64,000 bases of DNA from Torpedo marmorata (lineage: Eukaryota): positions 106,392,001 through 106,456,000 of the forward strand of contig OZ360222.1 of NCBI GenBank assembly GCA_977017645.1, read 5' to 3'. The notes beneath the pieces were generated by a model that saw nothing but the letters and a program-made list of their open reading frames with translations, did not search any database and had not been told where the DNA came from. The position numbers were made by a program, and so were the translations under genes. Below, one piece after another: positions 28,101-43,000 of this stretch; position 1 is the first letter of the stretch, and each line of letters opens with the position of its first letter.

Positions 28101-28610
28101 CAGGACTACCCATCAGATAAATAAATTGCCACACATAGATACCAAGCCGTGTTAACTGGAATGCAATGGAGCCAAGGTTTAGGGTACATAGGAGAGATAT
28201 ATCTTTCCTCAAAAGACCAGGAACACAGCCAAAGGGCCAGAGGAAATAAAAGGTCAATGGAACAATGTAACAAGCTAACTCCAGAGGACTTTGATTCAAT
28301 GCAGCAAGAATTTTCATGGTTTTGAACACAAGATCAGTGAATGCATCCTCAAATGCAGTGACCGCCAGCTCAATTTACCACAGCCCATCTCTCAGCTCCC
28401 TATGCCCTATATTAATCAGATCCCAGACCTCTAGACACATTTATCTCTGCAACAGGCCTCATGCCCACATCTCAGACTGCACATTTTGCCAGCTGTTCCA
28501 TCATCATCCACATGTACTTCGCTACCATTTTGCCCTCTGCTTTGCAAGATGTGGTATCACCTAATGGCAGGCAGCAAGAACCTGATCACAATGGAAGAGA
28601 TATTGCTCAC

Positions 28611-29157
28611 TATAGTGAATTCAATCCAACAAATAGTCACTTGGAGGCAAGGTGAGATATCTGTTCATGACGCGTTTCAATTAATTTACTAACAAGTCCA
28701 ATAGGTACAAAAACTTTATTTGCACACGATAACTTGTAGCAATCTTCAATGACTTAAATATCTCTTTAACAAAATATAAACAATTTTTGATAACGATGTT
28801 TAATAACGATTCTTTAAAACGTCTTTAAACTTCCTTTAAAACGATTCTTTATAAATTCCTTTAAACGGTCAATGAAAGCTATGGTGATCTCACTCACCCT
28901 CCTCTAGGTCGCCATATTCTTATAATACTTCTTCTGATTCACGCGCATGCTCCACCGCGCGTACTCCACAGCGCATGCTCCACCGCATATACTCCAGCCA
29001 CTTCCCCACTGCGCATATGCCTGTCGGCACTCCTGCGCATGCGCAGAGTACTCAATAGGCCCAGCACGGCCTACTAATCTCCGTGACTCCTCCAAAACCC
29101 GCTGAATACATCGGAACACCGCGATGAAGGTAAGTAACCAAGCCTATGGCTCTTACA
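28611..29157 (-). repeat. BEL 3' LTR (547 bp)
   Basis: Minus strand starts TGTAAGAGCC and ends CACTATA; CpG-rich core, TATAAGAA (28917-24), AATAAA (28715-20). Confidence 0.9.
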
Positions 29158-29337
29158 CTGGCCCCTAATTATTATAACGAGATGCAATGTCTTAATTAAT
29201 AATTACACAATCAATTACAAATGACAATAACCATATAACATTCAAACAATATACAAATTTTCTTTCTTCACAAGACCAGAGTTTAAAAGTCTGTAACCTG
29301 TAGTATACAACAACAAAATAAAGTCAGTTTGTATTTA

Positions 29338-32300
29338 TCAAAGTTCTTTTATCTCCAGAATCTTTGAGTTAGAACATGGACCAGTAAACCTCAAATCTTC
29401 CTCAGACAAAATAGATAGCTTTTTCTTTTTGAATTTAACACGAGGTACTTCTTCAGCATGTCGTTTTACTTTATTCCTTTCTTCAGCATTCCACTTCTCA
29501 TATGAAGAATTTAAACTCTTAGAACTAGAATTTGAATATTTATCTGATCCTCTCGATTTTAATAAACGAGTCTCTTTAACCACTCTGGTTTCTATTGCCC
29601 TTTCCTACAATTCCAAATCCAATTTTGCAACTTTCAATTCAGTCTCAGTTCCTTCCGAGAAATTAATAACTTGATCTGAAGTGAAAATATCATGTAATAC
29701 ATTGATATTTCTATTGTCAACCCTGCTGTGGTAAACTTGAAATTTTTGAATTTCTTCATCTTGCTTGATACATTGCTGCAATGCAATATCACTTTCTTTC
29801 TGCGTTGTTAATAGCTGAACCTTCAATTTACATTCTTGATTGTTTTCTATAATCAAATGTTTTGCATTATTAACCAATAACTTGTTGTCTTTCAAAATAT
29901 AAATCTCTTCCTCCAACCTTTTACATCTTAATAATGCTGAAACTCTTTCCTCAATAACTTATTTATTTCTTCAGCAGTTATTCTTTTCTTCTGCTTTCTG
30001 ACTTTGCGAATTTTTTTTACAATTAAATCTTTCTGTTTATTGTTTTCATGATTATCCAATATTTCCAATTCCCCTTTCAACATTTTGTTCTCTGAATTCA
30101 ATTGCATTAAATTATCATTCACATTCTTCTTATTCCATCAGCACAATTTTCTACTTTCATCAGTTTTACATCACATTGCAACATTTCTTCATTGACTTTG
30201 TCTGCTGTAACCTTTGAACTACAAAATCGACTTTCAAATTTGTTCTCAGTCACTTGTTTTATTCCTGCCTCTGATTCAATTACACATGAATAATCACTAG
30301 TATTATTTGCAACATCTTCTAATACTTCATTTTCATCCATTTCTGATGAAAATAATTCCTTCAATGCTGTTTTAATTACCTTTGATTCATTTTCACATTG
30401 ATCTGTTTTCTTTTCTTCAAAAGTGACTTTCTTATTCACAGTGTTTTGCTCATCCCTTAACTCATCAACTTTCACAACCGAAATCCTGTTAACATTTATC
30501 GCTAACTGTTCCTGTGCAATATTATTATTTCTTTCCAATGGTCCATTAATTGTCCAACCAAGCTTGGTTCTAACAGCGTAAGGTCCATTCTCTCTACTCC
30601 GTATTACTTCTAGTGGTTCCAAAACCTTTGGTGCATCCGAACCAATCAGCATTTCTATCTCAGAGTTAACTTCAGGTAAATAAACCTTCCACAGATAAGA
30701 CAAATGATGGAAATCATTTTGATGCGGAATGTTTCCTTCGTGCACAGGCATAGTCTTCTGAGTATATAAACTTGGAAGATCACAAAATGTTTTGTCATCC
30801 AATCCAGCAACCTCTAAGCCTGAAACAATGCTGGTTTCAACGACCTTTTCTTGACCCATGGTTTTCAACATAATTCTTGACCTTCTTCCTTGAATATTAA
30901 GTTTGTTCATTAGTCCCACCATGCAAAAAGATGCAGTGCTGCCTGGGTCGATAAATGCATATGTATGTACTGTTGCATCCCCTTTCTTGATCTTGACTTG
31001 TCCAGGCACTATTGAAAGTTTGCAGTTATCCACACCGGCCCAGTAAGACCACTTGTCTGAACCGAGGTTATAACATTGTTTTCTGATGTTTCCTTTGTTT
31101 CTGTTTGCTCCTTTTCCAATTCCTTGTTTCTTTGATGGATATGCAACATTCTAGGATGCTTCAAATTGCATATGTTACAGTTAATTTGCTTCTCGCAGTT
31201 TTTACTGATGTGCCCTTTACACAGACAGCTAAAACATACCCCATTTTACTTTAAGAAAGTGATCTTCTCATTATGTTCCTTTTTTTCCAACCATAAACAC
31301 ATTTCCAAAGCATGTCCACCTTTACAGAACAAACAACTCTTCTCATTAGTCAAACTTTCCTTTTCCTTATTTACTTTATTTATAACTGACACATTAGTAG
31401 CAAAAGTACTCCTTTTCCATTTCGGACTAGGTTGTGAGTTAGACCTCCTTACTTCTTTGTTCCCCATTGAATTGTCTCTGGTATTTCCATATATTGGATC
31501 TGTTTCAATGTACACCTGTCGTTCAATAAAATTTACCACGACCTTTAAGGTAGTTCTTTGACCGTAATTTTCTTGTAAATCACAAGCCAAATTTCTCCAT
31601 CTATCCCACAACTTGTAAGGTAATTTATCTAAGATGATTCGCATATTACCAGGCATGTCAAGCTCACGAATATTATCGATATCTTCCATGGCATTACAAC
31701 ATCCTCTTAAAAAGAGAGTGTATGCTTGTAGAGCCTTTACATCATTCTGTTTTAATGATGTCCATTTAAGAGCTTTATCCATATAAGCTAAAGCAATTTG
31801 ATGCTTGTTGCCAAAATGTTGTTCTAGTAAAGACTTAGCTCTATCTAATCCTATTTCTGAGGACATATGTTTACAAGTTCTTTTGGATGTCCCTTTGTGA
31901 ACATTTCCAAATAATAAAGACATTCATCACGATCTTGGCATTTATTTTCAATATTGCGTCTAAAAGATTTCAAGAACACTTGGTACTGAAGTGGATCTCC
32001 ATCAAAAGTTTGAATCTCTTTCTTGGGCAAAGAAGAGAGAGACTGTAACTGAATCAATGATGCAGCAATTTCATTTTGTCTTCCTATGGATGACAATACA
32101 TTGCTCTGTTCACCACCTCTTGTTACAGGTAATGTATCTGGAAACCTCACTGGTGTAGTTTCTCCTGTATTTCTGATGCTTGACTCAAATGCCAAGGGAG
32201 CTGCATCGTTTGACCGATCCCAAGCCGCAGCTTTGTCTTCGGATGTTACCACTGGGACATGTGACTCGATAACACCATGCTCTTGAAGGATTTGTCCTTG

Positions 32301-33109
32301 TATTTGCAAGTCTTGTACCCCTGGTACTAAAATATCTACCTTTTTGGTTGGTTTCTTTTCCTGTGGCTCCTTTTTAAAATATAACTTCTTATCATCGCAC
32401 ACTTTAGATAATTTACTCCGAGCACTAAATACCATTGAACCTTCTAGTAGCTTTTTTTTTGCCCTGGCAATAGTAATGTTTGCTTCCAGCTCCTGCTGCT
32501 CCTTTCTCTGCCTTAGCTGCCCCTTCTCTTGCCTTAGCTGCTGCTCTAGCTGCTCCCTCCTTTTGTCTTAGCTGCTCCTCCTGTCCTTCTAAAATATGTT
32601 TATCCTTAAGCATTTTTTGTTGCGCAAGAAGAGTGGCCAAGACAACTTCAACCTTTGTACGTGACGATGCAGAACTTGAAGTACGAGAAACTCTGGAGCT
32701 CGAACCAGAACTTTGTTTGCTTCTCCTGCTTTCAACATTTGAGACACTGACACATGCTTGTATTTCATCCTACAGGTCAGATGTTGTCTTCTTACTTACC
32801 TCCTTCACCAATTCAAATTGTACATCCTTTGCATCTTCATCCTCTTCATTTTCTTCATCATTTGGTGACACATTTTCAGCTATTTCCACGTTTCTGTCTT
32901 CATGTTCATCAAATGAAGCCGCCTCTTCTTCCTTTGCCAGCTTCAGTCTTCCGATGAGAACCTTTTTTATTTCGACTTGTATCTAGTTTCAGGCACTTCA
33001 ATTCTTCTTTGAGCTCCACAACCTTCATGACTTCAATACGTTGGTCCTCAACAGCAACATCAGCAGCTGCTGCATCAGCTGCTGCTGCATCAGTGTCTGC
33101 TGCGGCCAT
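29338..33109 (-). pseudogene. BEL polyprotein remnant: SAP, Gag, Zn knuckles, protease, K/E-rich coiled coil (several frameshifts and stops)
   Basis: Chain of minus ORFs 32909..33196, 32425..32640, 31851..32435, 31246..31923, 30119..31033, 29928..30122, 29605..29916, 29338..29583; likely start ATG at 33109 (AAAATGGCC). Confidence 0.8.
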
Positions 33110-33565
33110 TTTACTCGTCTTGTTCCACCGTCCTTTGAGCATACACAACACTAGCCAAATCAACAGTCCCCAATGGACTAGCGGCAGCAAATCCAATCTG
33201 TGTTCAAACTTGCCAAAGATACACAGAAGGAGTCCACAGACTTATGCCTACCACTTCAGATGACTGTAATGTGCTGCTATTCACAAACGAGTTTCCACCA
33301 CAGCATCCGTCAATAATATCGCTGATTTTCAATAAATGGTTTCTCCAACATATTTATAGGACACTTTACTATAAGATTTGAAGCTCTAAATCCCTCTCTG
33401 GCTGTTACTCATGGCAGATGGATGTGGATTACAAACTGCCCCTAACTCGAGGCATCTCCAAGATGGCCACCATTTTTAAAAATATCAGTCGAAAGCACAG
33501 AGAGATTATTCTATCTTCTTTCCTTCAATTTTCTGTTCCAAACAGTAAACTTTCATTGACTAAAC

Positions 33566-33641
33566 TATAGTGACTTCAATCCAACAAATAGTCATCGGAA
33601 CACCGCGATGAAGGTAAGTAACCAAGCCTATGGCTCTTACA
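33566..33641 (-). repeat. BEL 5' LTR with a 471-bp internal deletion (76 bp left)
   Basis: Matches both ends of 28611-29157, joined at a CA microhomology (aatagtCA|tcggaac). Confidence 0.9.
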
Positions 33642-35159
33642 CTCACCATCAACAAAGCAACCCCACCATAATTGTTGTGGAATCCATAATCATACAACAA
33701 TCTTACTTTCTCTTGACACCTCTCTCTGCCCCAGTCCCCAACTAATCAAGTGTCCTTTCTCCTTTCAGATAGGCAAGAACTGCAACTCATCTGATAAAGT
33801 ATTGGTTGAAGAGTGAATAAAAAGTGAAACACATTTGGTCCAAGCTATCCACTAGTTTGTTATAACAGATCCACACACTCTTGAGGTCAGCCAAGTATTA
33901 CTGGGAGTGTCGGTAAATATCCTAGGGTGCTCCAGAGCCTTCTGTTGTGGTGCCCACATGTTTTCTGGGAAAGCACCATGTATCCACCTTCTCCCTAATT
34001 AGGATGGAGCCTATTTACATGGAGTTGGAGCAGGATTGAGCTGTAAGCAGCACGTGAAGTTCTTGGGAATCCTCCCACTCTCGTCAACTTCAGACAAAGC
34101 AATGACGCATCTCCAAAAGTAAAAGAGCAGCAGCAATTTGTCACCATTAGGAGTCAGGCCTGTGGGATTTGAGAAGTCTCAGATTTACGGAGATCACTAG
34201 GGTGAAGGTTAAGCTTCCAGAGCTATGATTTAGGATCAAAAGGAGGTCATTCACATTAATGCTGTTACATAGGAGAGGACCATTTTGATAGCTGTGATTT
34301 TTATTGTTCACAGGAAGTCCATGTGCCTATCCCTCACAGATAATGAGTGTAAATCTCCCACCCACTAGCTCAGGTTTTCCATTTGAAATCCAGATTACAG
34401 GCAGGATCCACATGCGTTGATTTACTGAGAACAAGTGGCCTGCAACCAGGTGAGGAAAAGATAACTCAGCTACAGGGTCACCAGGGATCAGGGAGTTCAG
34501 CTACGAGGTGTGCACTCCAGTAAGACAGCTACCACGTTGGTCAACACACATGCATAATGCACACTCAGTGCATTGTCTAACCTGCCAAGAAAGCCTGTAT
34601 GTGTTTCTAATGGAAGGTCTTTGCCTCACAACACTAGCACTGTTCTTTTCTCTCTACAGATGCTGCCTGACCTGCTGAGTATATCCAGGGCTTTGTGTTT
34701 TATCTCAGCATCCGTGCAATGTTGAGGAGCATGTAGGCATCAAACACCAACCTTGCAAATAGCTTTGTACGGGTTTTGGACTCCTTACTTTCCAACATGG
34801 ATGTGGTGGTCAACACCAGTAGCACTCTTAATGACCCAAACTTGTGTTGTTGTTATCTTGATTTTCATGCCAGCAGAAGTTGAAGCCTTCTAGTGGAAGC
34901 TTCCATTTCTATCATACAGCCTCACGTTGTGGTGTATTGTCAAAGAGTCTTGCAGTTCTAGTAATATGTCCTCCAAGACAAATCTAAGATTGCTAAGGCA
35001 CTAGCCCAGGAGGGTGGCAGCGTCTCTGTATGTTACAAGGGAGCTATCTTCTCATGGGTTTGGAGCATTCAGAGTTTTACCACTGCCACTCTGCCATCAG
35101 CCATGTGAGATGATGGTGAGCTGATATGGTTGCAACCTGTCCCATGTAGTACCATAGTC

Positions 35160-40095: not shown

Positions 40096-43000
40096 AACAT
40101 AGAAAATAGGTGCAGGAGTAGGCCATTCGGCCCTTCGAGCCTGCACCGCCATTCAGTATGATCATGGCTGATGATCCAACTCAATACCCTGTACCTGCTT
40201 TCTCACCATACCCCCTGATCCCCTTAGCCACAAGGACCACATCTAACTCCCTCTTAAATATAGCCAATGAACTGGCCTCTACTGTTTCCTGTGGCAGAGA
40301 ATTCCACAGATTCACCACTCTCTGTGTGAAGAAATTTTTCCTCATCTCGGTCCTAAACGATTTCCCCCTTATCCTTAAACTGTGACCCCTGGTTCTAGAC
40401 TTTCCCAACATCGGGAACAATCTTCCTGCATCTAGCTTATCCAATCCCTTAAGAATTTTATATGTTTCAATAAGATCCCCCTTCAATCTTCGAAATTCCA
40501 GTGAGTATAAGCCTAGTCGGCCAAGTCTTTTTTTTAAATATTTTATTTTAAATTTTCAAATTTTTCGCAATAATACAAAATAGTACAAAGTACATAATAA
40601 ACATTAATAAATTCAATACATACAAAATTCGTATTACCGTGATTCTAACCCCATCTAAACCCACCCTCACTAAAACAACCCACCCTCCACCCTTCCCATC
40701 CCTTATTCCTTCCCCTTACTAAAAATAAGAAAAGAAACAGAGAGGAAGAAAAATATCTGTACAGGTCCACGGCTCGGTGCAAGATATTCAACAATGTTCG
40801 TTCTTTAAATTTAAATTTAAGAGAGTCAGCAGGGTCTAGGATGTAGGGCAACACATTTAAATATTCATACCTAATAATTGGATGAATGGACGCCAAATTT
40901 GCAAAAATACCCCATATTTATTCCTCATATTATATGTTATTCTTTCCAATGGAATACAACTCTGCATCTCTGAATTCCATCTATCCATACTTAAATTTGT
41001 ATCCGATTTCCAAGTTACTGCTATACATTTCCTTGCTACTGCTAATGCAATTTTTACAAATTTCAATTGCCATGTAGATAACTTCAATTTTGGTCTAGTT
41101 CCTTCCACGTTTCCCAATAAGAATAAGTCAGGATTCTGTGGAAATGTAACACCTGTAATTTGTTTTAACCGATTTCCTAACTCTATCCAAAAACCTTTAA
41201 CCTTTGAACATGACCACGTTGAGTGTAAAAAGGTTCCCTCTTCTTCACCACATCTAAAGCATCTATTTGATATCGTAGAGTTTATCTTATTCAATTTTTG
41301 TGGTGTAAGATATAATTGATGTAAAAAGTTATATTGTACCAATCTATATCTTACATTAACAGTATTAGTCATACTATCTAAACATAGGTCTGACCACCTT
41401 TTTTCATCAATTATAACATTAAGATCTTGTTCCCATCTTTGTCTAGATTTATGAAGTCCTCGTTTTAAAGCTCCCCTTTGTAGCAAAGAATACACTATAG
41501 AAGTAAATTTCTTAGTATTTCCTTTCCTAATAAGAGTTTCTACCTCACTACAATCATGTAACAAGAAGTCTGGACCTAATTTTTCTCTTAAATAACCTCC
41601 TAATTGAAAATAACAAAAAAGAGTATTATTAGGTATTCCATATTTATTCCGTAATTGTATAAATGACATCATTTGATTTCCTTCGTAACAATCTTCTATC
41701 TTCTTTATTCCTTTTAATGACCAAGTATTTAAAAATGGATTATCTTTTGTAAATGGTATAAGATTATTCTGTATCAAAGGCATTTTGGGTGATATACTTC
41801 CTTTCAACCCTATGTCATCATTAACTTTATTCCAAGCATTAATCAAATGTTTTAATAACGGTGTTTCTTTAACACCTGTCAGTAGTTTTGAATTCCATTT
41901 GTATATAAATTCTTGTGGTATCTTTTCTCCTATTTCTCCCAGTTCTATTCCAACCCACGCAGGTCTTTCTTCAGTTTCAAAAAAAGAAGCAACAAATCGC
42001 ATTTGTGCCGCTCGATAATAATTCTTAAAATTAGGGAGTTGCAAACCCCCCAATTCATATTTCCATGTTAAACGTTCCATTGAAACTCTTGACATTTTAC
42101 CTTTCCATAAAAATTTTCACACTTGTTTATTTAAATCCTGAAAGAAAACCTGTGGTAATAAAATAGGTATAGTCTGATACAAATACTGTATCCTTGGAAA
42201 TATATTCATTTTGATACAATTAACTCTTCCTATCAGTGTAATTGGTAAATTAATCCACTTTTCTAAATCCTCCTTAATCTTGTTAAGTAATGGTACATAG
42301 TTCCATTTATATAAATTTTTTAATTTATTATCTGTCCGAACCCCAAGATATTTTATTCCATTATGTGGCCATTTAAACTGAGTAGTTCTTTTACATACAG
42401 TATAGTCTCCCTCTGTAAGAGGCATAACTTCACTTTTATCCCAATTTATCTTATAACCAGAGACTTTTCCATATTCCTCCAGCTTGAAATGTAGTCTTTG
42501 CAAAGAAGTCTCAGGCTCTGTCAAGTATATTAAAACATCATCCGCAAATAAACTAATTTTATGTTGCTCTTGACCGACTGTAAATCCCTTAATTGCCAAA
42601 TCACTTCTAATAGCCTCTGCTAACAGTTCTATAGCTAATACAAATAAAGCTGGTGACAATGGGCACCCTTGCCGACTAGATCTTGTTAAACAAAACGAAG
42701 TTGATATTTGTCCATTGGTCACTACTTTAGCTTTTGGAGCATTATATAATGCTTTAATCCAATCTATATAAGTCTTCCCAAATCCAAATTTCTCCAAAAC
42801 TTTGAATAAAAAGTCCCATTCCAACCTGTCAAAAGCTTTCTCTGCATCTAATGCCACTGCTATACTTGGCATTTTCCTTTTTTGGGCTAAATGCATAATA
42901 CTAAGTTACCTTGCTACATTGTCAGCTGCTTGTCTTTTTTTTATAAAACCTGTTTGATCTATATTTACTAATTTTGGCAAAAAATTTGTTAGGCCAAGTC

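Follow-up and report, generated by a model that had tools for sequence, protein, structure and literature searches.

Retroviruses and LTR elements transduce host genes, as in the gag-onc fusions, where an intron-less piece of a host mRNA lies between the LTRs; TR-GAG elements are reportedly non-autonomous and gag-only. Retroviral Gag proteins also carry chromatin tethers, such as MLV p12 and the foamy virus chromatin-binding site, which are short viral peptides. SAP modules occur in transposon proteins as well: Zisupton DNA transposons and Chlamys Penelope-like elements have them on transposase or RT proteins, and the available part of the source names no donor gene (PMC8557442). BEL/Pao elements (Belpaoviridae), whose replication is poorly understood, are assigned an 18-nt tRNA-Arg/Gly primer site in the ICTV profile (PMC8742986). 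Here we describe a BEL/Pao element whose Gag begins with a SAP domain that, we are nearly certain, was captured from the host gene SLTM, a member of the transposon-repressing SAFB family. As in gag-onc transduction and TR-GAG, an intron-less host piece lies between LTRs and a pol-less derivative keeps gag, but here the piece became a lasting Gag domain in pol-bearing elements and founded a genome-wide radiation. The SAP module sits on Gag, unlike those of Zisupton and Chlamys, and the donor splice junction is preserved; the likeness to MLV p12 and foamy virus concerns the proposed role only, the domain here being a captured host DNA-binding fold. Neither the capture of genes by LTR elements nor the presence of SAP domains in transposons is new in kind. 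What appears to be undescribed is a donor-traceable capture from a transposon-repressor gene as the lasting N-terminal domain of Gag in a very abundant clade: a literature search outside which lay Repbase, most subscription journals and supplements turned up no description of a SAP domain or of SLTM in a BEL Gag, and the term 'SAP' is absent from the available parts of PMC3118150 and PMC8321522.

Element copies in the genome fall into subfamilies A (A1, the window type, and A2), B and C. In the window, the 64,000-nt stretch of Torpedo marmorata DNA analysed here, the element spans 28611-33641 on the minus strand, and all of its features are given on that strand. It is flanked by a 5-bp target-site duplication (33642-33646 on the 5' side, with the identical five letters at 28606-28610 on the 3' side) and ends in a 547-nt 3' LTR (28611-29157) preceded by a polypurine tract (29158-29167). 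The 5' LTR is reduced to a 76-nt remnant (33566-33641), its middle, with a promoter-like region and the partner of the primer site, being deleted. Downstream of the primer-site position (33550-33560) lie a piece of SLTM-derived 5' UTR (33110-33148; the boundary, about 38 nt before the ATG, is taken from subfamily C, and the window copy aligns from 33140), the coding part derived from SLTM exon 1, with its Ala leader and SAP domain (32938-33109), and, directly abutting it, 16 nt from SLTM exon 2 (32922-32937). These are followed by the element's own acidic, Ser-rich linker and coiled coil (32425-32921; one stop and one frameshift in this copy), a Gag linker, capsid (DUF1759) and Cys-His knuckles split over several frames (31140-32424), an aspartic protease region (30461-31139), and a tail of about 380 codons (29338-30460) that replaces RT, RNase H and integrase and is in frame with the protease in less broken copies. 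LTRs, target-site duplication and polypurine tract are as expected for BEL/Pao. The coding region of the window copy is spread over at least seven frames, with further stops and frameshifts; given these and the internally deleted 5' LTR, we conclude that this copy is dead and yields no SAP-Gag protein. About 470 nt were lost inside its 5' LTR, and longer 5' LTRs are kept in 19 other examined copies. The LTRs end in TA in most A1 copies and mostly in CA in C and B.

The best 40 relatives in the genome are 91-95% identical to the window element over its 5' end. Twenty copies were extended: 12 carry the tail instead of RT and integrase, two have pol from window position 30461 onward, and six end or are interrupted earlier. 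The pol of pol-bearing copies contains RVT_1 and a Pao peptidase domain, and copies L022, L135 and L136 combine a BEL/Pao Gag (capsid, knuckles) with the order PR-RT-RH-IN and the Pao peptidase. With BEL/Pao the pol-bearing copies share LTRs, 5-bp duplication, DUF1759 capsid, three Cys-His knuckles, protease, RT, Peptidase_A17, integrase and DUF5641; the window copy lacks the part from RT to IN. The preliminary description had counted the missing pol as part of an undescribed system. Because pol-bearing copies have the same SAP start, the pol-less window type is instead an ordinary non-autonomous derivative, and the loss does not come with the SAP fusion. This derivative, of which the window copy is one dead member, needed a pol-bearing helper. 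The tail matches no Pfam family, nor anything outside the clade among the compared loci and proteins; by eye, coiled-coil-like repeats are abundant in it.

We then examined the start of Gag. An ATG at 33109 opens an Ala-rich leader, followed by a SAP-like stretch with a frameshift between 32960 and 32976. If an X is put at the break, the Pfam SAP model (PF02037) gives the window peptide 20.7 bits (E 3e-4), below the cut-off of 23.9. The frameshift is private to the window copy: the SAP is in frame in 10 of 19 other fetched copies, and the other nine break earlier or elsewhere. Unbroken copies score 36.4 (L017, 446 aa) and 32.9 bits, and from the SAP the reading frame runs on through the acidic tract and coiled coil into BEL Gag. 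The claim that this BEL Gag begins with an SLTM/SAFB-like SAP domain, fused in frame, thus holds in unbroken copies, which pass the cut-off that the window peptide fails to reach. Pfam recognizes only SAP and DUF1759 in Gag. AlphaFold predicts a helix-loop-helix for the L017 SAP (pLDDT 95-97) and, along Gag, two SAP helices, a disordered acidic linker, a long coiled coil and capsid helices, so that the SAP sits at the N-terminal end, about 280 residues from the capsid domain in the predicted structure. The best Foldseek rows are SAP proteins, 0.5-1.5 Å from solved SAP domains, yet with E 0.1 or worse. A sequence search of the PDB ranked the SAPs of hnRNPUL1, MKL1 and Hcc-1 at the top and returned no SAFB or SLTM structure; word-based homolog searches with derived SAPs gave no match, and an Atlas search gave nothing usable beyond one weak SAP lead at 0.76.

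The donor is most readily recognized in subfamily C, which was retrieved by a motif search aimed at host SLTM that missed the host gene. Selection of these copies by a 10-codon SLTM-like motif biases their protein identity; silent sites, UTR and junction were not so chosen. In a protein search, the top matches to the C N-terminus were skate and sawfish SLTM (83% over 48 residues), and all 119 named proteins among the 120 matches listed were SLTM; the top matches also point to a batoid host. We located the host SLTM gene, with its exons in order, and SAFB exon 1 as a control. All 18 C copies match SLTM exon 1, with 81-90% DNA identity over 183-198 nt. The 5' edge of the match is sharp and lies 38-40 nt ahead of the ATG; from there the match reaches the splice donor, continues into exon 2 and stops after +16, and at each of the first 16 positions of exon 2 it is exon 2, not intron 1, that is followed by 14-16 of the 16 in-register C copies. 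A contig from run X3 skips the same 1,184-nt GT..AG SLTM intron 1 and runs on into exon 3. Since the exon 1/exon 2 junction lacks this intron, we conclude that the captured piece, about 204 nt, came from spliced SLTM mRNA. Over 38 codon columns, 110 of 114 bases are identical between C and SLTM. Element and vertebrate SLTM have in common the first 55 codons and 38 nt of UTR; with the match ending at exon 2 +16, the element lacks the RRM and ER repeat and has Gag fused instead. A low-depth X3 contig extends upstream of the capture boundary, which bears on the idea that this boundary is the mRNA cap site.

The SLTM SAP is conserved at 88-97% across sharks, salmon, bird and human, which sets the direction of transfer from host to element; derivation of the host exon from the element is ruled out by the same identity. 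Subfamily C also carries the host's own Ala/Gly leader, which is different in skate, sawfish and shark proteins, so the capture likely took place within the host's lineage. The suggestion that the element had captured the 5' end of a SAFB-family mRNA is borne out, the donor being SLTM and the source a spliced message, with both boundaries and the exon junction in evidence. Accessory domains of transposon proteins are usually without a traceable donor; here donor gene, breakpoints and splice junction persist. On contig G000:C54, two SAFB-like RRM loci lie near 17.15 Mb and 18.2 Mb, with a SAP exon upstream of the second only (within 50 kb).

Derived subfamilies have moved further from SLTM. When the window piece is compared with the host SLTM locus by plain blastn, no match appears at E 0.01; a direct alignment of the window DNA with SLTM exon 1 scores 131, against a maximum of 54 in 1,000 shuffles, 57.5 for SAFB and 59.5 for an hnRNPU-like gene. 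Among codons for the same residue, those identical to SLTM number 34 of 37 in C, 17 of 26 in A2, 17 of 27 in A1 (9.3 expected, z 3.4) and 15 of 20 in B, with z values over element codon use of 3.4-8.5 overall and 3.4-5.4 in A and B. The SAFB control gives 4 of 17 against 4.5 expected, and z values for SAFB lie between -1.5 and 0.6. SAFB as donor of A and B, a candidate prompted by a common loop residue, was ruled out by these silent sites. With p < 0.05 as the threshold, the UTR piece is retained in 30 of 32 A copies and in only 3 of 14 scorable B copies. A tree of 99 nt of SAP DNA joins SLTM with all 56 in-register copies (support 97). Of the host SAP genes with which a phylogeny had been proposed, SLTM thus proved to group with every copy, and SAFB was excluded as donor.

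A capsid tree was built from 34 copies and 49 outside proteins, fourteen copies having been excluded as duplicates or for low coverage. In it, C is basal, among SAP-less relatives, and A and most of B lie on long branches; without one long-branch row, the 34 copies form one clade (99.9). These sequence comparisons indicate that all sampled subfamilies descend from one capture, and the graded series of descendants lets the birth of a new Gag domain be followed stepwise. LTR divergence, at 3-10%, does not separate C from A or B and gives no sign of a greater age for C. The capsid tree places two B-type copies near C, away from the main B clade; a B-type SAP on a capsid that groups apart from other B copies, as in L052 and L054, possibly reflects recombination between subfamilies.

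We also asked how SAP domains are distributed in other BEL Gags. An N-terminal SAP with a BEL Gag is present in 6 of 150 outside relatives (P0062, P0106, P0113, P0119, P0131 and P0150), 98 of which were scanned with Pfam and all 150 with our own SAP profile. These SAPs are distant (33-52% identity to host SAPs where in register), and a single clade of outside SAP Gags and the present copies is rejected (AU p 0.003); out-of-register outside SAP rows were dropped, two from the SAP DNA comparison and one from the AU-test analysis. The nearest relatives lack a SAP; those sampled include a teleost BEL/Pao element, P0007, from Merluccius polli. SAP is therefore very unlikely to be a general ancestral feature of this BEL clade, the circumstance that the preliminary description had named as speaking against its reading, and by these sequence comparisons the distant BEL Gags acquired their SAPs in separate events. 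No SAP is present in any of 28 aligned relatives picked for their long N-termini. For one SAP-less relative a three-helix bundle is predicted at the N-terminus; a fold search with the relatives' N-domain gave no match at E 0.001, and one query for a pre-capture parent found none. From the predicted model we infer that the SLTM SAP replaced the three-helix N-domain of BEL/Pao relatives.

The captured SAP was under purifying selection. Between host and A its dN/dS is 0.24-0.31 (p 0.001-0.009), and between C and A1 it is 0.37, with 0.44 for the capsid start and 0.97 and 1.41 for the linkers. The value for host versus B, 0.51, is not significant (p 0.10), and A2 versus A1 gives 1.37 (2 silent and 10 replacing changes), with no significant constraint. 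The equivalent of a Lys essential in SAFB2 is kept in 55 of 56 copies, and the loop Gly and Lys are nearly invariant. In A1, 12 of 16 copies have Leu at the position of SAFB2 Arg45, and 15 of 16 have Lys at that of Ser54. According to the available part of PMC9958909, the SAFB2 SAP binds only dsDNA, weakly (micromolar) and with a slight AT preference, 9 bp being enough; it does not bind RNA and may partly dimerise. Lys53 and Ser54 are needed for DNA binding, and Arg45Ala unfolds the domain.

We propose that template switching during reverse transcription picked up the piece of SLTM message (the end of the 5' UTR, exon 1 and 16 nt of exon 2), which would have taken two switches on a co-packaged SLTM mRNA. 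In Gag, the SAP could then serve as a dsDNA tether that holds particles on chromosomes, many weak SAP heads displayed outside the particle perhaps binding by avidity. Such a tether function is plausible but tentative. The best explanation as a whole, that SLTM mRNA was captured as the start of gag and is likely used as a chromosome tether, we consider reasonably probable. With a domain of 40 residues and a solved relative, access of particles to chromatin becomes directly testable. Tethering to AT-rich chromatin in particular, as first suggested, finds no echo in insertion sites: 26 copy flanks have a median GC of 0.407 against a background of 0.415 (p 0.49; the background tiles contain element copies).

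Other readings accept the capture and assign the SAP another use. Rather than chromosomes, it might bind the element's own newly made DNA, either within the particle or close about it, and so compact that DNA or hold it together with Gag and integrase. The absence of target-site bias in the 26 flanks suits this, as do the dsDNA-only, micromolar binding and the 9-bp requirement of the SAFB2 SAP (available part of PMC9958909). The SAP nevertheless lies at the N-terminal end, some 280 residues from the capsid domain. In related capsids that end faces outward, and we think the own-DNA reading rather unlikely. It is also unlikely that the element profited from the start-codon context of the host, or from a soluble folded cap, with DNA binding incidental and decaying in the abundant pol-less forms. 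Retention of the UTR piece in A, the changes at the Arg45- and Ser54-equivalents and the A2/A1 dN/dS above 1 would fit such decay; on deeper branches, however, dN/dS is 0.24-0.37, equal to the capsid, the loop Gly and Lys hardly vary, and distant BEL Gags have gained a SAP separately.

The captured head could also act as a decoy or competitor of the host SLTM/SAFB repressors of transposon RNA, lifting repression. SAFB1, SAFB2 and SLTM bind L1 RNA and jointly suppress retrotransposition, and their depletion raises LTR elements in mouse and fly (available part of PMC10901741), and the possible partial dimerisation of the SAFB2 SAP also speaks for this reading (available part of PMC9958909). Repression is described as RNA binding, however, and the SAFB2 SAP does not bind RNA; the related proposal in the preliminary description, mimicry of a host factor that restrains retroelement RNA, is weak, since the RNA-binding RRM is missing from the captured piece, as is the ER repeat. 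The derived, commoner subfamilies moreover diverge from SLTM (52-70% identity of the SAP, against 89% in C), the opposite of what mimicry predicts, and we hold a decoy to be improbable. Least probable is a different history, in which an already old SAP of BEL Gag was overwritten by SLTM mRNA at a later time, in C alone, or in which the piece arrived via a trimmed LINE-made SLTM retrocopy. The six outside relatives with SAP and BEL Gag and the LTR divergence of C, no greater than that of A or B, would allow for it, but A and B keep SLTM silent codons, the nearest relatives are without SAP and the AU test rejects a single SAP clade, so that the old-SAP form is largely refuted already; against a retrocopy, the piece is the 5' end of the message, and no 3' part or poly(A) was seen with it.

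Returning to the chromosome tether, a bolder version is that a repressor's DNA-binding head replaced the Gag N-domain and that chromatin tethering fuelled a radiation, now tens of thousands of copies strong and filling several percent of the 6.2-Gb genome; pol-less hitch-hikers would have retained SAP-Gag to build particles of their own, and SAP gain would be a repeated, convergent upgrade of BEL Gags. We regard this version as speculative; its causal link between SAP capture and expansion is one that we infer.

The Pfam SAP model gives 29,045 first-look candidates in the genome. Relatives of the element make up 29 of the 30 best and 14 of another 16 that were hand-picked; we take the other three to be host SAP genes resembling hnRNPU, hnRNPUL and SARNP. 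We sampled 60 blind 10-kb tiles, set at round positions along large contigs; pieces of the element are present in 14 of them and cover 37,658 of 600,000 bases (6.3%; bootstrap 3.0-10.2%). The tiles contain five SAP starts, which corresponds to roughly 17,000-120,000 copies; the tail is present in 8 of the 60, and pol in one. A considerable share of this large genome may thus belong to the clade. Exact matches number 1,316 for an A-type 17-mer (control 2) and 53 for a C-type 16-mer (control 22): the form nearest the donor is rare, and derived pol-less forms dominate. The family is found along its whole length in contigs of four runs under four organism codes. One broken B-type copy recurs with identical scores and frames on many small contigs (L071 and about a dozen unplaced contigs), probably through segmental or tandem amplification.

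Lastly, we examined the primer site, whose self-complementarity had been noted alongside the missing pol. In the window, the 11 nt at the primer-site position (33550-33560) do not begin with the tRNA-type TGG and are complementary to a site in the element's own LTR (28868-28878). Of 67 copies, 62 could be anchored, and in 35 of these 9-14 nt after the 5' LTR pair with an LTR site about 200-300 nt upstream. The pairing letters differ on both sides in C, A2, A1 and B, which amounts to compensatory changes, and no TGG-type tRNA primer site was seen after the LTR in the 62 anchored copies, judged by eye. The pairing is therefore real, but no link to the SAP was found, and the primer site seems to be independent of it. 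A and C both retain a splice-donor-like GGTGAGT and a YY1-like ATGGCG immediately upstream of the pairing site (window ~28890-28900; L017, L110 and L048). In place of the 18-nt tRNA-Arg/Gly site of BEL/Pao (PMC8742986), the arrangement resembles the self-priming of Tf1/Tj1, where the primer-site position is likewise complementary to a segment of the element's own LTR (available part of PMC4600332); Tf1/Tj1 belong to a different superfamily, and self-priming here is a candidate mechanism suggested by the sequence pairing. Elsewhere in the window, a 419-aa frame with zf-RVT (40857-42116, minus strand) is the end of an L1/Tx1-type LINE, and the remaining repeats look like ordinary LINE and SINE pieces.
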